A stretch of DNA of 64,000 nt. Origin: Alphaproteobacteria bacterium (lineage in GTDB: Bacteria; Pseudomonadota; Alphaproteobacteria; Bin95). Below the pieces are notes generated by a model, which made no database searches, was not told the DNA's origin, and worked only from the letters and a program-made list of their open reading frames with translations. Positions 2,244 to 63,595 of this stretch are shown in pieces; position 1 is the stretch's first letter, and the number at the start of each line of letters is the position of its first letter. A program made the translations under genes and the position numbers. Location: positions 7,874 through 71,873 of the forward strand of contig JAJDYL010000103.1 in assembly GCA_022825195.1 (NCBI GenBank). The letters run 5' to 3'.

Positions 2244-2760
2244 GCCGGCTTCTCTCCTTCGGCAGTCCGGAAGGAATCTTTGACATGCTATATATGTATA
2301 TGGCCGATGAAGTTAAGGGTGATAACATGGGTTTTTCGGTAAATTACACGAGTTTGTGAACATATTTTAACTCATAAGAATAGCCTATATGGCCTATAGG
2401 TTTTTCTCTTGAAACTCACAAGAAGGGGCAGAAGCAGCTATTATATTCGAATTATTACCTTATGTATTTCTCGCATAAAATTCGTTTATAGGCATTTCCG
2501 AAAGGGAGCATATACGCAGCCCTCTTGCCGTCATGCCCTGAGCTTATCTAAGGGGGCGTTCGGGCATGACGGAAAGAGAGCCGGGACGCCGGAGGCATCC
2601 TTCGCAACGAGCATGTCCAGGGCGCTGTCGGCGCCCATGGCTCCCCTGGCCGCCGACCCGAACGGAGTTATCCTTTCCGGGCATGTGCCGGCTGCCGACC
2701 GGAAGCTCCTGCCGTCCGACGAAGTCCCCTGCCGCCCGATGCAGAGGCGAGGATTGTCCG
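2244..2760. promoter_or_regulatory. AT-rich non-coding island containing the lysR promoter/RBS, a CCTATA-N5-TATAGG palindrome (2384-2400) and an 11-bp-stem hairpin (2527-2572)
   Basis: Visibly AT-rich versus its flanks; TTGACA at 2280 followed by TATATAT-rich sequence. The hairpin is inverted GCCGTCATGCC/GGCATGACGG(a). Confidence 0.6.
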
Positions 2761-8446: not shown

Positions 8447-9238
8447 GTGATTCTTCCTGTCATTCCGTTCCCGGCCATCGACCCGGTCGCGGTAGAGCTG
8501 GGGCCGCTGGCGATTCGCTGGTATGCGCTGGCCTATCTCGTCGGCCTGATCGCCGGCTGGCGCCTTGCGCGCCGCCTTGCCGCCCTGCCGCCGCGGCCGA
8601 TGCGTCCCGAGCGCGTGGACGACCTGCTGGCCTGGATGGTGCTGGGCGTGGTGGCCGGGGGGCGGCTCGGCTACGTGCTGTTCTACAAGCCCGGCTACTA
8701 TCTCCAGAATCCGGGCGAGGCGCTGTTCCTGTGGCAGGGCGGCATGTCGTTCCACGGCGGCATGGCCGGCGTTGCGCTCGCAGTCTTCCTGTTCGCGCGC
8801 CGGCATGACCTGCCGTTCCTGCGGGTGGGCGATATCGTGGCGGCGGTCACCCCCCTGGGCCTGTTCCTCGGGCGGCTCGCCAATTTCGTGAACGGCGAGC
8901 TCTACGGCCGGGCGTCCGACGTCTCCTGGGCGATGGTCTTTCCCTCGGACCCGGCGCAGGTGCCGCGCCACCCGAGCCAGCTCTACGAAGCGGCGCTGGA
9001 AGGCCTGGCGCTCGGAGCGGTCATGCTGGCGCTGGCGTTCAGCGAGCGGGTGAGGGCGCGCCCCGGCCTGCTGGCGGGCGTCTTCATGCTCGGCTACGGG
9101 CTCGCGCGGTCCTTCGTCGAGTTCTTTCGCGAGCCGGACGCGCATCTCGGGTTCATCCTGGGGCCGGTCACCATGGGGCAGTTATTGTCCCTGCCGCTGA
9201 TCGTCGCCGGCCTCTTCCTGCTGGTCCGCAGGCCGTGA
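8447..9238 (+). CDS. lgt: prolipoprotein diacylglyceryl transferase
   Basis: Lgt signature, polytopic membrane protein (…QGGMSFHGGMAGV…HPSQLYEA…). Confidence 0.9.
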   Translation: MILPVIPFPAIDPVAVELGPLAIRWYALAYLVGLIAGWRLARRLAALPPRPMRPERVDDLLAWMVLGVVAGGRLGYVLFYKPGYYLQNPGEALFLWQGGMSFHGGMAGVALAVFLFARRHDLPFLRVGDIVAAVTPLGLFLGRLANFVNGELYGRASDVSWAMVFPSDPAQVPRHPSQLYEAALEGLALGAVMLALAFSERVRARPGLLAGVFMLGYGLARSFVEFFREPDAHLGFILGPVTMGQLLSLPLIVAGLFLLVRRP

Positions 9239-10242
9239 CCGCCGGCCTCGGCGCCCGCCTTGCCCGGCGCATCGGGCGCGACGGCCCGATTCCGCTTGCC
9301 GAGTTCATGGCGTTGAACAACGCGGCCTACTATGCCGGCCGCGACCCGTTCGGCCGCGGCGGCGACTTCGTGACCGCGCCCGAGGTCAGCCAGATATTCG
9401 GCGAGATCGTGGGGCTGTGGTGCGTCGATGCCTGGGAGCGGCTGGGCCGTCCCGCGGAGGTCCGGCTGATCGAGCTCGGGCCCGGCCGCGGCGTGCTGAT
9501 GGCGGATGCGCTGCGCGCCGCGCGGCTGGAGCCGGCATTCCGGCCCGAGATCCATCTGGTCGAGACCTCGCCGGCGCTGCGCGCGCTCCAGCGTTCGCAG
9601 GGCTTCGATGCGGTCTGGCACGACCGGCCGGAGACGATACCGGACGGTCCGTCCATCTGGATTGCGAACGAGTTCTTCGACGCCCTGCCCGTCCGACAGT
9701 TCGTGCGAATCGGCGGTCGCTGGCATGAACGCCTGGTGGACCGGGACGGAGACGGTTTCCGCTTCGTCGCGGGCCCGGCGCTCCGCCGCGCGGGGTCCGG
9801 CGAGGACGGCGACATTGCCGAAGTCTGCCCGGCGGCGGGCGGCATCGCCGCGACACTGGCGGCGCGTCCGGGCTACGGCCTCGCGATCGATTACGGCTAT
9901 GCGGAGGCGCAGCGCGCCGCGACCCTGCAGGCGGTCAGTGGGCATGCGCCGGTCGATCCGTTGTCCCGGCCGGGCGGAGCGGACATGAGCGCGCATGTGG
10001 ACTTCGGGGCTTTGATGCGCGCGGGCCGCGAGGCCGGCGCGGCGGTCTGGGGGCCGGTGCCGCAGGGCGAATGGCTCAAGCGCCTGGGCATCGAGGCCCG
10101 CGCCGCCCGGCTCGGCTGCCAGGACGATGCGCTGGCCCGGCTGACCGGCGGGGACGCCATGGGCCGGCTGTTCCGGGTGCTTGCCTTCGGCCCGGCGAGC
10201 GAACCCGCGCCGGCCGGGTTCTGCGACGGGGAAGGGGGATGA
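9235..10242 (+). CDS. class I SAM-dependent methyltransferase, MidA/NDUFAF7-like (DUF185)
   Basis: …DFVTAPEVSQIFGEIVGLW…IELGPGRGVLMAD…; 4-nt overlap with lgt. Confidence 0.8.
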   Translation: MTAGLGARLARRIGRDGPIPLAEFMALNNAAYYAGRDPFGRGGDFVTAPEVSQIFGEIVGLWCVDAWERLGRPAEVRLIELGPGRGVLMADALRAARLEPAFRPEIHLVETSPALRALQRSQGFDAVWHDRPETIPDGPSIWIANEFFDALPVRQFVRIGGRWHERLVDRDGDGFRFVAGPALRRAGSGEDGDIAEVCPAAGGIAATLAARPGYGLAIDYGYAEAQRAATLQAVSGHAPVDPLSRPGGADMSAHVDFGALMRAGREAGAAVWGPVPQGEWLKRLGIEARAARLGCQDDALARLTGGDAMGRLFRVLAFGPASEPAPAGFCDGEGG

Positions 10243-10997: not shown

Positions 10998-13856
<2,859 letters not shown>

Positions 13857-24987: not shown

Positions 24988-25130
24988 TACCGGCGGTACG
25001 GGGTTGCGACCCATAGGAGATGGCGCTCCACCGTCGCCCCGGCAGCCTCGGGTATCGGAGATGGGCCCCCGCTTTCGCGGGCGCGACGAAAAGCGGGCGG
25101 TAGTCGGGGGACCGGCGGAAGCGTCAGGAT

Positions 25131-25590
25131 ATGTCATGTTTTGTCATGAGGCCGGTCTGTGCCCGGCCGTTTGCTCCGGGCCGGCAGTCGCTCGCAAAGG
25201 CATTGCGGCTTCCTTTCCGTCCATGGTCCTCGGACGCCCGGTTGCCGGAGGAGCGTTCCCCTCCCGCGCATAATGCGCGCGCGCGTTTCGCGGCGGCGCG
25301 CGTGTGCGCCCGCGCGTGCGGGACGGCGGGGCCGTCCTCTCCATTGTGGATGTCATGAGATGTCATGTTTTGTCATGAGGCCGGTCTCCGTCCCGGCCGC
25401 TTGCGCCGGTCCGGCGGTCGTTCGCAGGGCATCGCGGCCTCCTTGTCGGTCCATGATCCCGGACGCCCGGTTGCCGGAGGCGCGTCCCCCTCCTGCGCAT
25501 AATGCGCGCGCGCGTTCGCGGCGGCGCGCGCGCGCCCGCGTGCGCGAGGCGGCGGGCGGGCCATTCCCCTCGACAAGCTCATGACAGGTT
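25131..25590. repeat. imperfect tandem duplication of a ~229-bp GC-rich structured unit; five forward and one inverted copy of TGTCATG(AG)
   Basis: Unit 1 starts at 25131 and unit 2 at 25360, both with ATGTCATGTTTTGTCATGAGGCCGG. Unit 2 is preceded by a third decamer (25351). The far end at 25578-25586 is CTCATGACA, the inverse of TGTCATGAG. Confidence 0.85.
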
Positions 25591-26085
25591 CTTTTGTCGC
25601 TCCGGCCCCCGAGCCGGGGTCCAGTCTCGGTCCTCGCGGCAGCCCCGGATACCCGGAACAAGTCCGGGCACGGTCCGGGGCAGGCCCCGGCAGTTGAGCC
25701 AGCTCTCCACCGGCTGCGGCATCATCGAGAGCCATGCATGGACCCCGGCTCGGAGGCCGGGGTGACAGTCGGGGGGCATGCGACGCGAAGCCAACGCCGG
25801 AGATGTGTGCATCGGGTAGCGGTTGGGGGCGGGGATCGTTCACGGTCATTCGTGCCTCCTCCCTGGGGACCATGGGCGGGACGGGGTGTCCCTGTTTCGC
25901 GCGTTATCGTGCGCCGGTGCGTGCGTGGGCGCGGGCGGGCGTATCGCGGCGGCGCGGTTCACGCGCGTGATTGCCCGCGCGCACGGGCGCGCGGCGGCAG
26001 GCCGGCCGGAGGGCGCACCCCTCCCGCCTGCTCACGCCGGGGGTTTTGCGGCCCCCAGCCATTGCTTTCTGCAGAAAAGCGGAAC

Positions 26086-26112
26086 GGCGGCCCCGGAAGC
26101 CGCCTTTCTCTC
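26086..26112 (+). terminator. GC hairpin GGCGGC-cccggaa-GCCGCC followed by TTTCTCTC
   Basis: Read directly; the T-rich tail is only moderate. Confidence 0.4.
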
Positions 26113-26332
26113 ATGCCTATTCTACACCATTCCTCGGAAAGTCAAGCCATTTGGGAACAAAAAATGAAAAACCGGACAACTTTCTCACAACCCGTTGAAC
26201 CGGCAGGACAATATCGGTGTTGCCGGATTGGGACCCATGAGGAACAGCGCTCCACCGCCGCCCCGGCCCCGGCCTTTGCGGAGGCAGCGAAGGGGCGGCC
26301 CCGTCATCGGTTCCGGTCGATGCCCGCTGGTA

Positions 26333-62449: not shown

Positions 62450-62562
62450 TCCGGCGCGCGCGTCCGAGAAACTGTTTTGTTCGCATATATGGATATAATT
62501 ATCCGCAAGGGGCTTGCATTCTAGGAAATTATGCTACAATAGCTCCCAGGGCAGCGGTGTCC
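62450..62562 (+). promoter_or_regulatory. AT-rich promoter-like region (TTGCAT…CTACAAT; TATAAT-containing stretch) upstream of the terminase-like gene
   Basis: Read directly from …catatatggatataattatccgcaaggggcTTGCATtctaggaaattatgCTACAATagc…. Confidence 0.45.
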
Positions 62563-63480
62563 ATGGGTCCGCTTCCCGCCTCTCCGGCCCGGCGCCGGAA
62601 CGACCCCCTTTCGACGCACAGGCGAAGTGCGCCCGCCATCGCCCTCTCCACACGCCAGGAAGCCTTCTGCCGCCACTATGCCGTCTCCGGCAATGCCGCC
62701 GGCGCCGCAAGGCAGGCCGGCTATGCGGAGCGTTCCGCCCGCCAGACCGGCTGCGCCCTGCTGGAGCGGCCCTACATCATCGAGCGCCTGCGCCGCATCC
62801 GGCTCTCGTGGAAGCGCACGGAGAGGGACGAGGCGGGCATCCTGCTGGCCCGGCTGGAGCAGGCGTGGGACGCGGCCGTTGTCGCCGGGTCCGCCTACCT
62901 GATGCTGCGGGTGCTGCGCTTCCAGGCGGAGATCGTGGGGCTGGCCGGGTCCGGCGGCGGGAACCGGGCCCGGCTCTGGCCGGTGGCGCACGAGGACGAG
63001 CTCGGGGAGATCGAAGCCGGGGAGGCGCGGGAGGCGGGCACCGAACCCGGCCCGCTCGCCGAGGCCGTCGAGGAGCGCACGCGCCTGCCCGTCAGCTTCG
63101 CGGCCCCGGCCCCGGCGAACGACCTTCCCCCCGCCGACGACCCGCCGGAGGAGACCTGCGAATACTGCCCCTGGGACAGCGGCGACCGGGAGGGGGCCGA
63201 CCGGGACCGGAAGGACGACGACCGGGCCGACGGCGCGGAGCATGACTGGCTCCACCAGCGCCGCCACGGCTACGGCGACATCTACGACCCGTGGGCGCCG
63301 GAGGAGGTCGCGGAGCGCAGGCGGACCCGGCTCGAACGGGAAGCGGAGGACCGCTGCGCCCGCGAGGACCGGACCGGACCGGCGAAGAGGAAGAAGAAAA
63401 AGAAGAAGACCGGGCGGACGGGGACCGGTTCGACCGCGTGGATTTCGCCCCCGGCCATGACGGAACATGACAATTCATGA
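62563..63480 (+). CDS. phage terminase small subunit-like protein (Terminase_2-type HTH N-domain) with a low-complexity acidic/poly-Lys C-terminus
   Basis: …STRQEAFCRHYAVSGNAAGAARQAGYAERSARQTGCALLERPYIIERL… matches the TerS N-domain; the C-terminus is …KRKKKKKKTGRTG…. Trimmed to MGPLPASP…. Confidence 0.6.
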   Translation: MGPLPASPARRRNDPLSTHRRSAPAIALSTRQEAFCRHYAVSGNAAGAARQAGYAERSARQTGCALLERPYIIERLRRIRLSWKRTERDEAGILLARLEQAWDAAVVAGSAYLMLRVLRFQAEIVGLAGSGGGNRARLWPVAHEDELGEIEAGEAREAGTEPGPLAEAVEERTRLPVSFAAPAPANDLPPADDPPEETCEYCPWDSGDREGADRDRKDDDRADGAEHDWLHQRRHGYGDIYDPWAPEEVAERRRTRLEREAEDRCAREDRTGPAKRKKKKKKTGRTGTGSTAWISPPAMTEHDNS

Positions 63481-63595
63481 CATTTCCGGGAGGGTCCCCG
63501 CTCCCCGTTCGCGGGGCCGGCGGCCGTGCCCGGCAAACGGAAAAAGGGCCGGCTTGGGAGCCGGCCCTTTCCCTGTCCTTGCGCCCGGAGGCGGG

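Follow-up and report, generated by a model that had tools for sequence, protein, structure and literature searches.

What does a gene for a phage-type small terminase subunit (TerS) do when it stands alone among the metabolic genes of a bacterial chromosome? This question is raised by an open reading frame (ORF) at 62563-63480 on the plus strand of a stretch of 64,000 nucleotides, referred to as the window in the following, from contig JAJDYL010000103.1 of an Alphaproteobacteria bacterium. The ORF starts with ATG, ends with a TGA stop codon (63478-63480) and encodes a TerS-derived protein of 305 amino acids (aa). It had originally been described, from the letters of the window alone, as an orphan gene. 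It is instead a copy, marked by deletions, of a solo small-terminase cassette that is chromosomal and multi-copy. The family is dispersed, with at least 5-11 members in a genome, and a second, decayed copy of it is present in the window. The cassettes stand solo amid housekeeping genes, are kept alike by gene conversion, vary in position between relatives and decay by deletion. The family is selected, amplified and lineage-specific; it has a defined cis element, and its copies evolve strongly in concert. As best overall explanation, to which we assign about even chances, the cassette combines a TerS-derived protein with a pac-like array of its own.

The cassette, its copies and their decay

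The canonical cassette is ~1.3 kb long and consists of an AT-rich promoter-like region, a leader of ~290 nt (in the main clade), an ORF coding for 300-345 aa and an array of CATGACAnnn repeats that extends over the stop codon. DNA similarity among the copies starts ~20-50 bp upstream of the promoter-like element and stops 5-40 bp past the stop codon. The array usually comprises three, sometimes two to four, direct repeats with a period of 10 bp. Nearly every locus of the family, even in the most distant clade (~40% protein identity), carries it at the ORF's 3' end and on the strand of the gene. In the window copy three direct CATGAC repeats with this period are found at 63456-63481 (+). The pattern CATGAC-N4-CATGAC has five matches in the window where 0.00 are expected and may be used as a simple and specific marker for locating cassettes. 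Most copies read the repeats as His-Asp and Ser-stop before the array becomes non-coding; the window copy and some others read Met-Thr, His-Asp and Ser-stop. As the hexamer is conserved in three frames and past the stop codon, it is a DNA or RNA element and does not reflect a peptide constraint. Conserved trailing bases (63482-63500, +) form the right edge of the cassette, similarity to other copies ending at 63482-63520, and the cassette ends right after the array without an intrinsic terminator. Orphan CATGAC arrays without an adjacent ORF, probably the footprints of lost cassettes, were observed at L035 (7281-7306), L040 (7636-7651), L060 (988-1003), L086/L087 (13756-13771, minus strand) and L088 (7464-7479, minus strand).

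The left edge of the cassette is an AT-rich region upstream of the promoter-like element (62470-62512, +), where cross-genome similarity starts. With a G+C content of only 37% at 62470-62545, against a window mean of 69.2% (standard deviation 5.8% in 100-bp windows), this region is as AT-rich as had been claimed, and the gene is indeed solo with a promoter-like region of its own. An AT-rich GAAATAAT-TCC-type motif recurs upstream in other copies. The promoter-like element (62513-62540, +) follows a family pattern, CTTGAC/CTTGCA, 15-16 nt, TG-n-TA(G/T/C)AAT; in the window copy a weak -35 sequence, CTTGCA/TTGCAT at 62513-62519, is separated by 15-16 nt from an extended -10 sequence, TG-C-TACAAT at 62532-62540. 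Thus, the σ70-like hexamers of the original prediction are present and conserved across copies, but the -35 sequence is weak and a consensus promoter scanner did not flag the element on the plus strand of the window. The element is nearly invariant among the copies of one genome and its type is kept across genomes (e.g. TTGACC...TGCTATAAT in OY730441); it presumably functions as a promoter. A palindromic operator (CATTCTAG...CTAGAATG) over the promoter of the CBDBIS copies was considered and rejected, not being conserved in other genomes.

The main-clade leader is GC-rich, and conservation over its first ~100 nt exceeds that of the coding region. It starts with a hairpin, P1; nearly all of the 48 distinct variants fold into it, among them a divergent sequence type, with a median z of -2.4 versus shuffles. 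For the leader as a whole the covariation term of RNAalifold is ~0, outside P1 the changes are one-sided only, and a search of a canonical cassette against Rfam gave no match in the leader, only weak chance matches downstream. The leader as a coding region was rejected, as its indels are not multiples of three. In the distant clade the leader has only ~45 nt, and a long leader is therefore not a defining part of the cassette.

A search of 5.8 billion proteins yielded 338 homologues, most of them 300-345 aa in length and 60-75% identical over most of this length; several sit on one multi-megabase contig. When one genome per GTDB species was scanned, 123 loci were confirmed, 80 of which were kept. 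The counts per genome are lower bounds: at least 11 copies in the CBDBIS assembly, at least 10 in OZ219785-9, at least 8 in CAXXPN, at least 7 each in CBDBGH and OZ253490, and at least 5 each in OY730441 and CAXXWS/OZ224045. All carriers are labelled as metagenome-assembled genomes (MAGs) of Alphaproteobacteria or Rhodospirillaceae, some of them linked to sponges (Spongia_Bin9), and the jk18x7 bins derive from the sponge Ircinia (PMC9531527). As the cassette is a repeat, several contigs of short-read MAGs stop inside the gene (L047, L059, L061-63); cassettes thus break short-read assemblies, mark synteny breakpoints and are relevant to MAG quality. A tblastn search with the N-terminal domain gave no match in GenBank phages (50,697) or PLSDB plasmids, and IMG/VR contained one distant match only, which is confined to the helix-turn-helix (HTH) and lies in a normal phage. 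Our literature searches brought up no account of a multi-copy solo terS family or its array.

The copies of one genome resemble each other more than their positions would suggest. Within a genome, paralogues share 88-99.9% identity, and for 55 of 61 cassettes the best match lies in the same genome; in seven pairs of positional orthologues the flanks are 86-95% identical, but the cassettes only 77-81%. Loci L006 and L036 share a flanking duplication, and that insertion is therefore ancestral, yet each of the two cassettes resembles the paralogues of its own genome. This pattern is that of concerted evolution through gene conversion, superimposed on fast divergence.

The positions themselves differ between relatives. 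The window lacks a cassette where relatives have one at ~34486 (L020, L044), ~13917 (L041, L064), ~29956 (L040) and ~1290-1344 (L038), and five related assemblies contain the dioxygenase block without a cassette. At L066 (CBDBIS) the cassette adjoins the same MoCoBD gene as the window copy, in opposite orientation, and recombination between cassettes can therefore not be the source of this arrangement. Upstream of an acetyltransferase gene a cassette is found in two genomes, and between the acetyltransferase and LysR genes in two others. In the latter space L002 carries a REase-ARP-like gene (11652-12443) and the gap in L035 is of about equal size; this gene is absent from the two genomes (L006/L036) where the cassette fills the space. 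Neither terminal inverted repeats nor a regular target duplication were detected in a comparison of the flanks of ~60 loci. A few loci have long, irregular direct flanking duplications of 30-478 bp, e.g. a 478-bp duplication of the 3' end of an enoyl-CoA hydratase gene (L037, 5145-5622 and 7195-7672) and a ~100-bp duplication of the 3' end of the LysR gene (L006, 5609-5719 and 7189-7326; L036, 4996-5127 and 7050-7161). In these cases the adjacent convergent gene is intact and the truncated copy lies on the other side of the cassette.

No neighbour gene is conserved, as judged by clustering the flanking ORFs of 82 loci. The next gene downstream is at a median distance of 128 bp and may have either orientation, without bias (40 co-directional versus 34 opposite). 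In three cassettes of one genome an IS110-family element lies directly 3' of the CATGAC array (L027, 7260-8285; L066, 7529-8554; L075, 7262-8287; all on the minus strand). Its transposase of 341 aa (DEDD_Tnp_IS110, Transposase_20) is identical in all three, whereas the host cassettes are only ~90-94% alike, and the cassette end looks like the preferred target of this element. Other short repeat families cluster beside cassettes, e.g. at L027 (8412-8775), recurring by L029, L035, L068, L018 and L030. At L078 (6755-9081) a cassette is apparently split by an insertion of ~2.3 kb, its 3' part with the array being located at 9081-9285.

Compared with the canonical copies, the window copy has suffered two deletions, of ~157 bp and 129 bp. 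The first junction, at 62631-62637, is marked by the microhomology GCCC: window 62508-62637 aligns with L066 5715-5842, and window 62631-62771 with L066 6000-6140. With this deletion went everything in the leader beyond its first ~95 nt, the Shine-Dalgarno sequence and five initial codons; the retained part of the leader (62541-62634, +) includes hairpin P1 (62549-62577). Because the leader was thereby fused to the ORF, the first 23 residues of the window protein (MGPLPASPARRRNDPLSTHRRSA) are translated 5' leader, and the loop of P1 contains the ATG that now serves as start codon. The second junction, at 63060-63066, is seen in the alignment gap, in the BLAST segments and against the AlphaFold2 (AF2) model of a canonical member, P0009; the 43 codons that are gone correspond to the larger part of the helical hairpin predicted at residues ~146-199 in P0009. 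The ratio of nonsynonymous to synonymous substitution rates (dN/dS) of the window copy versus other copies is 0.27-0.62. That its frame is still open is weak evidence of function, because the DNA is 70% G+C. Taken together, the window copy is probably a weakly functional or dying member of the family. Elsewhere the ORF is intact in most copies, truncation affecting ~15%.

The second cassette of the window (26146-25130, minus strand) is more decayed. It has a promoter-like element (CTTGAC ... TG-TAGAAT, 26119-26146, minus strand) and a leader of the jk18x7/ERZ266 sequence type (25882-26112, minus strand), positions 1-182 of the L007 unit matching window 26084-25882 by BLAST, followed by two tandem mini-remnants of ~219 bp each (25130-25560, minus strand). 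Each mini-remnant comprises the 3' part of a leader, an ATGCC start, a few codons and a CATGAC array (25351-25377 and 25133-25148, respectively). A BLAST search for further cassette remnants in the window gave this locus at 25.1-26.1 kb only. Within the decayed cassette, at 25596-25822, lies a repeat of ~200 bp, similar to miniature inverted-repeat transposable elements, which is shared with another genome, where it occurs just upstream of cassettes (L066, 5304-5495; L038, 3729-3911).

As to the gene's start and surroundings, the longest possible frame would begin at TTG 62371, overlapping the divergently oriented dioxygenase gene on the opposite strand; ATG 62563 is plausibly the only sensible start and agrees with the gene call on the source contig. 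The G+C content at third codon positions (GC3) of the ORF is 0.84, and its composition by codon position is like that of the host. Upstream of the gene are the dioxygenase gene and ABC-transporter genes. The contig is a metagenome scaffold of 82.7 kb. Downstream, in the 3.7 kb by which it extends beyond the window, a convergent MoCoBD/xanthine-dehydrogenase-type gene is followed by a 2Fe-2S ferredoxin, a hypothetical gene and an NTP_transf_2 fragment, and L066 has the same downstream genes. The original prediction had stated that no large terminase subunit gene (terL), portal or integrase gene is nearby. This was borne out: none was found among 30 window ORFs between 38 and 50066, which are housekeeping genes (UvrA, Lgt, LeuA-like, CoA-transferases, sulfate adenylyltransferase etc.) or have no Pfam match, nor in the precomputed Pfam annotation of the contig, which spans 52.5-64 kb of the window and the 3.7 kb further to the contig end. 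A prophage continuing past 64000, which would have made this an ordinary phage gene, was also looked for; the contig goes on with the genes just named, and neither a prophage nor a phage-inducible chromosomal island (PICI) nor a gene transfer agent (GTA) cluster is present in the window or in these 3.7 kb. The most AT-rich stretch of the window (2250-2550, GC 32-42% over ~300 bp) is found ahead of a LysR-type gene and has no BLAST similarity to the cassette.

The DNA-binding domain and the C-terminal extension

The N-terminus of the protein is a genuine DNA-binding domain of the SPP1/SF6 TerS type, on which Pfam, PHROG, PDB profile search, AF2 and Foldseek agree. Pfam Terminase_2 (PF03592) matches residues 29-97 (E = 4.1e-11, 44 bits, cut-off 26.1), the PHROG family phrog_51, 'terminase small subunit', matches the window protein with E = 6e-13, and the family profile matches the DNA-binding domain of SF6 G1P (4zc3/2cmp, E = 1.5e-4) in a PDB profile search. 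The original prediction had assigned the N-terminal ~120 aa to Terminase_2; the domain is TerS-like, as proposed, but the Pfam match is confined to residues 29-97 and covers positions 2-70 of the 141 in the profile, i.e. only the HTH half. On the DNA the HTH domain corresponds to 62647-62853 (+).

The AF2 model of P0009, a monomer calculated with an alignment of 62 sequences, has a mean predicted local distance difference test score (pLDDT) of 62.6. The HTH domain (residues 10-65) is predicted with pLDDT >90, and two long helices follow (residues 69-110, pLDDT 65-79). After a disordered stretch of low confidence (residues 109-147) come a helical hairpin of moderate confidence (residues 146-199), two short helices around the invariant AEHDWLYQRRNGY...YDPW motif (residues 249-289, pLDDT 76-81) and a tail that is disordered and of low confidence. 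The best PDB matches of the model in Foldseek are 3zqq, a full-length SPP1-like small terminase (127 columns), and 4zc3, the SF6 G1P DNA-binding domain (TM-score normalised to the target 0.85, root-mean-square deviation 1.5 Å, 41% identity). Ordinary TerS proteins of 130-200 aa from a library of 1.84 billion proteins align with query residues 27-135. In the window copy the two long helices after the HTH extend to about residue 135 (62854-62970, +), according to the TerS alignments, AF2 and the Foldseek match with 3zqq, and constitute a putative oligomerisation core. The two helices at 69-110 are modelled in a monomer only, and profile positions 71-141 are unmatched in any member checked.

For the C-terminal ~190 residues no Pfam, PDB or PADLOC match was obtained, neither in the window protein nor in longer distant relatives. 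Pfam recognised Terminase_2 only, and no C-terminal domain, in 14 members including the long distant relatives; NCBIfam has no family model for the protein, and the PADLOC models for anti-phage defence gave no match. In the P0009 model this region is composed of family-specific helices and disorder. It had originally been regarded as acidic low-complexity sequence, a view that does not hold: the acidic region after the HTH has many invariant columns across the family as well as predicted helices, and it is mostly conserved and under selection. Nei-Gojobori estimates from comparisons between genomes give a dN/dS of 0.21 for the N-domain, 0.29 for the middle, 0.39 for the C region and 0.74 for the tail.

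Hypervariability is limited to the last ~50 residues, where the lysine run is located. The originally reported poly-lysine tail does exist in the window copy (KRKKKKKK, 63385-63408, +), but the tail differs between copies, being Lys-rich, occupied by a variable run of Asp codons, or absent. The poly-lysine is an accident of a variable tail and not a defining feature. In the five OY730441 copies (L040-L043, L056) in-frame GAC/GAT (Asp) expansions lie in the C-terminal tail, ~250 bp before the stop codon, and differ in length among copies that are otherwise 98-99.7% identical.

The proposed protein-array pair and its possible functions

We consider it rather probable that the protein oligomerises and binds its own array and the arrays of sister cassettes, as in a pair of terS and pac. 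The helical core would form an oligomer, as in small terminases, and the oligomer would bind the phased repeats that end its own gene and the sister cassettes. In the reading that we favour, the resulting complex might then be a pac-like mark, used by a terL encoded elsewhere, i.e. by a helper phage or a GTA-like element, to start packaging of chromosomal DNA in situ, and the outcome could be gene transfer or interference with a phage. This last step is the weakest one and can be proposed only tentatively. Moreover, a multivalent ring on dispersed identical sites may bring the cassettes together, and one may speculate that such binding to sister arrays favours gene conversion and helps to explain why it is so frequent.

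The idea of a cognate pair is based on comparisons beyond the family. The next relatives outside it are short TerS-like proteins of 138-242 aa, and the three examined, from other MAGs, are all solo among core genes: L089 has leuCD as neighbours, L094 lies amid serS-surE-pcm ... yajC-secDF, and L095 is found at cold-shock genes and aspS. All three short genes have a promoter-like element (TTGACA...TATGAT or CCTATAT) and two to four phased 10-bp repeats at or after the stop codon, albeit of a different word, GCGGACAnnn (L089, 6387-6403; L094, 4454-4480, wholly after the stop codon; L095, 4581-4607). The GCGGACA word occurs in none of the CATGAC-type loci. Thus, a TerS-like gene with a phased 10-bp array at its 3' end is a general architecture in which the word changes with the protein, the simplest reading of which is a cognate protein-site pair. 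The putative recognition-helix stretch is SARQTG/SARQQG in proteins with CATGACA and S/A-RKQG in those with GCGGACA; with two classes only, this is a hint that the recognition helix changes with the repeat word. A homologue search with one short solo protein, P0193, returned no informative names.

In phages, similar arrays may be connected to packaging. An exact scan of IMG/VR for three CATGAC repeats gave 29 stretches. At L112 the array is followed after ~40 bp by a small ORF and after ~230 bp by a terS that belongs to the PHROG of the window protein (phrog_51, 8e-10); terL comes next, all on one strand. L108 has repeated arrays at the start of the contig, then an ORF of 176 aa and terL; at L104 an array heads an HNH-terL block; and at L105 the array forms the end of the gene for a 64-aa HTH protein, directly ahead of a ParB-methylase gene and terS. 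These loci make a link of CATGAC arrays to packaging suggestive, and, together with the conserved 3' array, they lend some support to the notion that a solo terS redirects packaging.

Two further repeats were encountered in the scan for GCGGACA. Low-GC phage contigs from IMG/VR (L127, L129, L137, L145, L162, L169 and L176, ~38% GC) carry four to five phased TGTCCGCAAA repeats that directly precede a -10-like box, TAGAAT. A Terminase_2-type terS follows ~1.26 kb downstream of them, after three small ORFs; the array could be a late-operon control or a packaging site. Perfect GCGGACACCA microsatellites of 5-10 units occur, often at contig ends, in viral contigs of 31-109 kb, many of them ~100 kb (L125, L128, L130, L135, L141, L149, L173 and others, IMG/VR sample 3300045988). 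The GCGGACACCA microsatellites and the TGTCCGCAAA arrays are suggestive, but both were set aside as not clearly related.

Several observations weigh against a role in packaging. No terL, portal or capsid gene turned up in the loci that were fetched, ~1.2 Mb in all. In every member searched with Pfam, positions 71-141 of the Terminase_2 profile, its second half, are unmatched, and the P0009 model contains neither a β-barrel nor any β-strand. Since packaging proteins are normally expressed late, a near-consensus promoter would be surprising for one of them, and packaging sites alone would not require 10 gene copies. The formation of new copies is not accounted for either, as there is no transposase-like domain, terminal inverted repeat or regular target duplication. 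Among the viral arrays only 4 of 29 are tied to packaging genes, as judged by inspecting the ORFs of 12 contigs and searching all 29 with tblastn; the array of L116 lies beside a ParB-like gene, and those of L116 and L117 precede -10-like boxes. Phased CATGAC arrays may thus serve several proteins. Finally, the array of the phages is upstream of terS, whereas that of the cassette is downstream.

The main rival is a full conversion to a cellular DNA-binding role, which we regard as possible, with clearly lower odds than a pac-like pairing of protein and array. The protein would then be an exapted HTH oligomer derived from TerS, acting as transcription factor, nucleoid-associated protein or roadblock, and the array would be its operator, e.g. 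for blocking read-through that starts at the strong promoter of the cassette and would otherwise reach the neighbouring genes. Such a role would suit a gene that is solo amid housekeeping genes, without phage genes nearby and behind a strong, constitutive-looking promoter, as well as a protein that has retained only the HTH half of Terminase_2 and carries a long conserved C-terminal extension without counterpart in TerS. The lack of an intrinsic terminator after the array, with a neighbour at a median of 128 bp in either orientation, fits as well. Ten near-identical copies are unusual for a regulator, however, the array is absent from the cassette's own promoter, there is no sign of regulated targets, and some phages carry arrays of the same word next to terS-terL.

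A selfish cassette that is mobile but non-autonomous, with host recombination or an enzyme acting in trans as the means of its spread, is unlikely as the whole explanation, although it is compatible with either a packaging or a regulatory role. Protein and array would here serve nothing but the cassette's own duplication or maintenance, e.g. by a synapsis of arrays that favours ectopic recombination. Copy numbers from 5 to at least 11, within-genome identity of up to 99.9%, decayed copies and orphan arrays and the breaking of short-read contigs within the unit are in line with such an element. So are the signs of movement, i.e. positions that differ between relatives, five of which have no cassette beside the dioxygenase gene, the opposite orientation at the MoCoBD gene in the window and L066, shifts between adjacent intergenic spaces, and the long flanking duplications (478 bp at L037, ~100 bp at L006/L036). 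On the other hand, the cassette has no transposase, recombinase, HUH domain or enzyme-like fold, no terminal inverted repeats and no regular target duplication. Its edges match the functional edges of the gene, promoter and stop, many positions are orthologous across species, and a dN/dS of ~0.3 indicates a protein under selection.

The original prediction had suggested a single orphan terS, belonging to a satellite of the PICI type or serving an RcGTA-type agent encoded elsewhere. The TerS-like N-domain and the solo position of the gene agree with this. It has nevertheless become improbable: no integrase, att sites, replication or regulator genes and no GTA structural cluster were found at ~90 loci, whose neighbours are metabolic and housekeeping genes, the gene is multi-copy, and its protein carries an extension of 190 aa where gp1 of RcGTA is short.

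It is very improbable that the protein is a secreted, host-directed 'nucleomodulin', in which the HTH, an acidic activation-like region and a Lys-rich run resembling a nuclear localisation signal would cooperate and which would be amplified like the transcription activator-like effector genes of Xanthomonas. The sponge-tied MAGs (Spongia_Bin9, and the jk18x7 bins from Ircinia), KRKKKKKK-type runs in the window copy and many others, acidic W/D-rich tails in other copies and the multi-copy state with variable tails might be read in this way. The lysine run is not conserved, though, being absent or replaced by poly-Asp in many copies, a signal peptide or recognisable secretion signal is lacking, the DNA-binding domain is invariant, so that the copies share a target, and the cis array, placed where the gene itself ends, speaks for a DNA target in the bacterium. 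That the gene is an ordinary remnant of a degraded prophage, as its Terminase_2 homology and the deletions in the window copy could suggest, is hardly credible, since there is no other phage gene in the window, in the rest of the contig or at the other loci, the base composition is like that of the host (GC3 0.84), and the family is conserved, under purifying selection and amplified.

Returning to the cassette as a TerS-derived protein with its own pac-like array, a more far-reaching version can be envisaged, although we consider it rather unlikely. The cassettes might be minimal 'pac cassettes', without excision or replication, at ~10 chromosomal sites, from which the terL of a helper phage or GTA would start headful packaging of host DNA, with rings pairing the arrays and driving conversion. 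If true, they would form a built-in system for lateral transduction or phage interference in sponge symbionts and would represent the smallest phage-satellite-like element described. Should the protein-array pair still recruit a terminase, it would be a new and very small chromosomal control over the DNA that enters phage-like particles, with consequences for phage defence and for gene flow in the dense microbiomes of sponges. Otherwise, the family would clearly exemplify the conversion of a packaging protein of phages into a cellular DNA-binding protein. The public label of these genes is 'terminase small subunit', and prophage predictors and readers would therefore call them phage remnants.

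Comparison with known systems

The small terminases of the SPP1/SF6 G1P type (PF03592, PHROG 51; 3zqq, 4zc3, 2cmp) share with the cassette protein an N-terminal HTH followed by long helices and a repeated DNA site by the gene; in many pac-type phages, pac sites sit in or beside terS. In contrast to these, the cassette has no adjacent terL or portal gene, and its protein is unmatched in the second Pfam half, shows no β-barrel in the model and has ~190 additional conserved residues. The gene is chromosomal and multi-copy, has a promoter-like region of its own and is without a BLAST-level relative among 50,697 GenBank phages. A true phage, L083, has terS-terL-portal-MuF in a row for contrast.

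Satellites such as the Staphylococcus aureus pathogenicity islands (SaPIs), PICIs and PICMIs also have a terS-like gene apart from any terL. Their TerS redirects the packaging of a helper phage to DNA that bears the satellite's pac site. These satellites are excising islands of 5-15 kb that carry genes for integrase, regulators and replication, whereas the cassette is a 1.3-kb unit of one gene, without integrase or att sites, in at least 5-11 copies per genome. Gp1 of the Rhodobacter capsulatus GTA (RcGTA) is likewise a domesticated phage packaging protein in Alphaproteobacteria; it is a short protein with weak DNA specificity that heads a structural cluster of ~15 kb. The cassette, by comparison, has no such cluster in the fetched loci; its protein is long, and its site is conserved and looks specific.

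Multiple near-identical copies at variable sites are also known from insertion sequences, and insertion sequences, rRNA operons and tuf genes have in common with the cassettes that their dispersed copies are gene-converted and accompanied by breaks in synteny and in assemblies; the cassette, however, codes for neither a transposase nor a housekeeping product. The closest analogy is gp16 of phage T4, in which a site at the 3' end of terS is linked to recombination between copies. According to work of L. W. Black's group, TerS rings of T4 are said to bind pac in the 3' part of gene 16, and a pairing of two pac sequences, promoting recombination and amplification, has reportedly been proposed. 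T4 gp16 belongs to a different TerS family, the two being compared by pattern, and T4 is a phage whereas the cassettes are dispersed in a bacterial chromosome. Taken together, the cassette is a domesticated or satellite-like small terminase that stands out among these systems by its copy number, its concerted evolution, its cis array and its extreme minimality.

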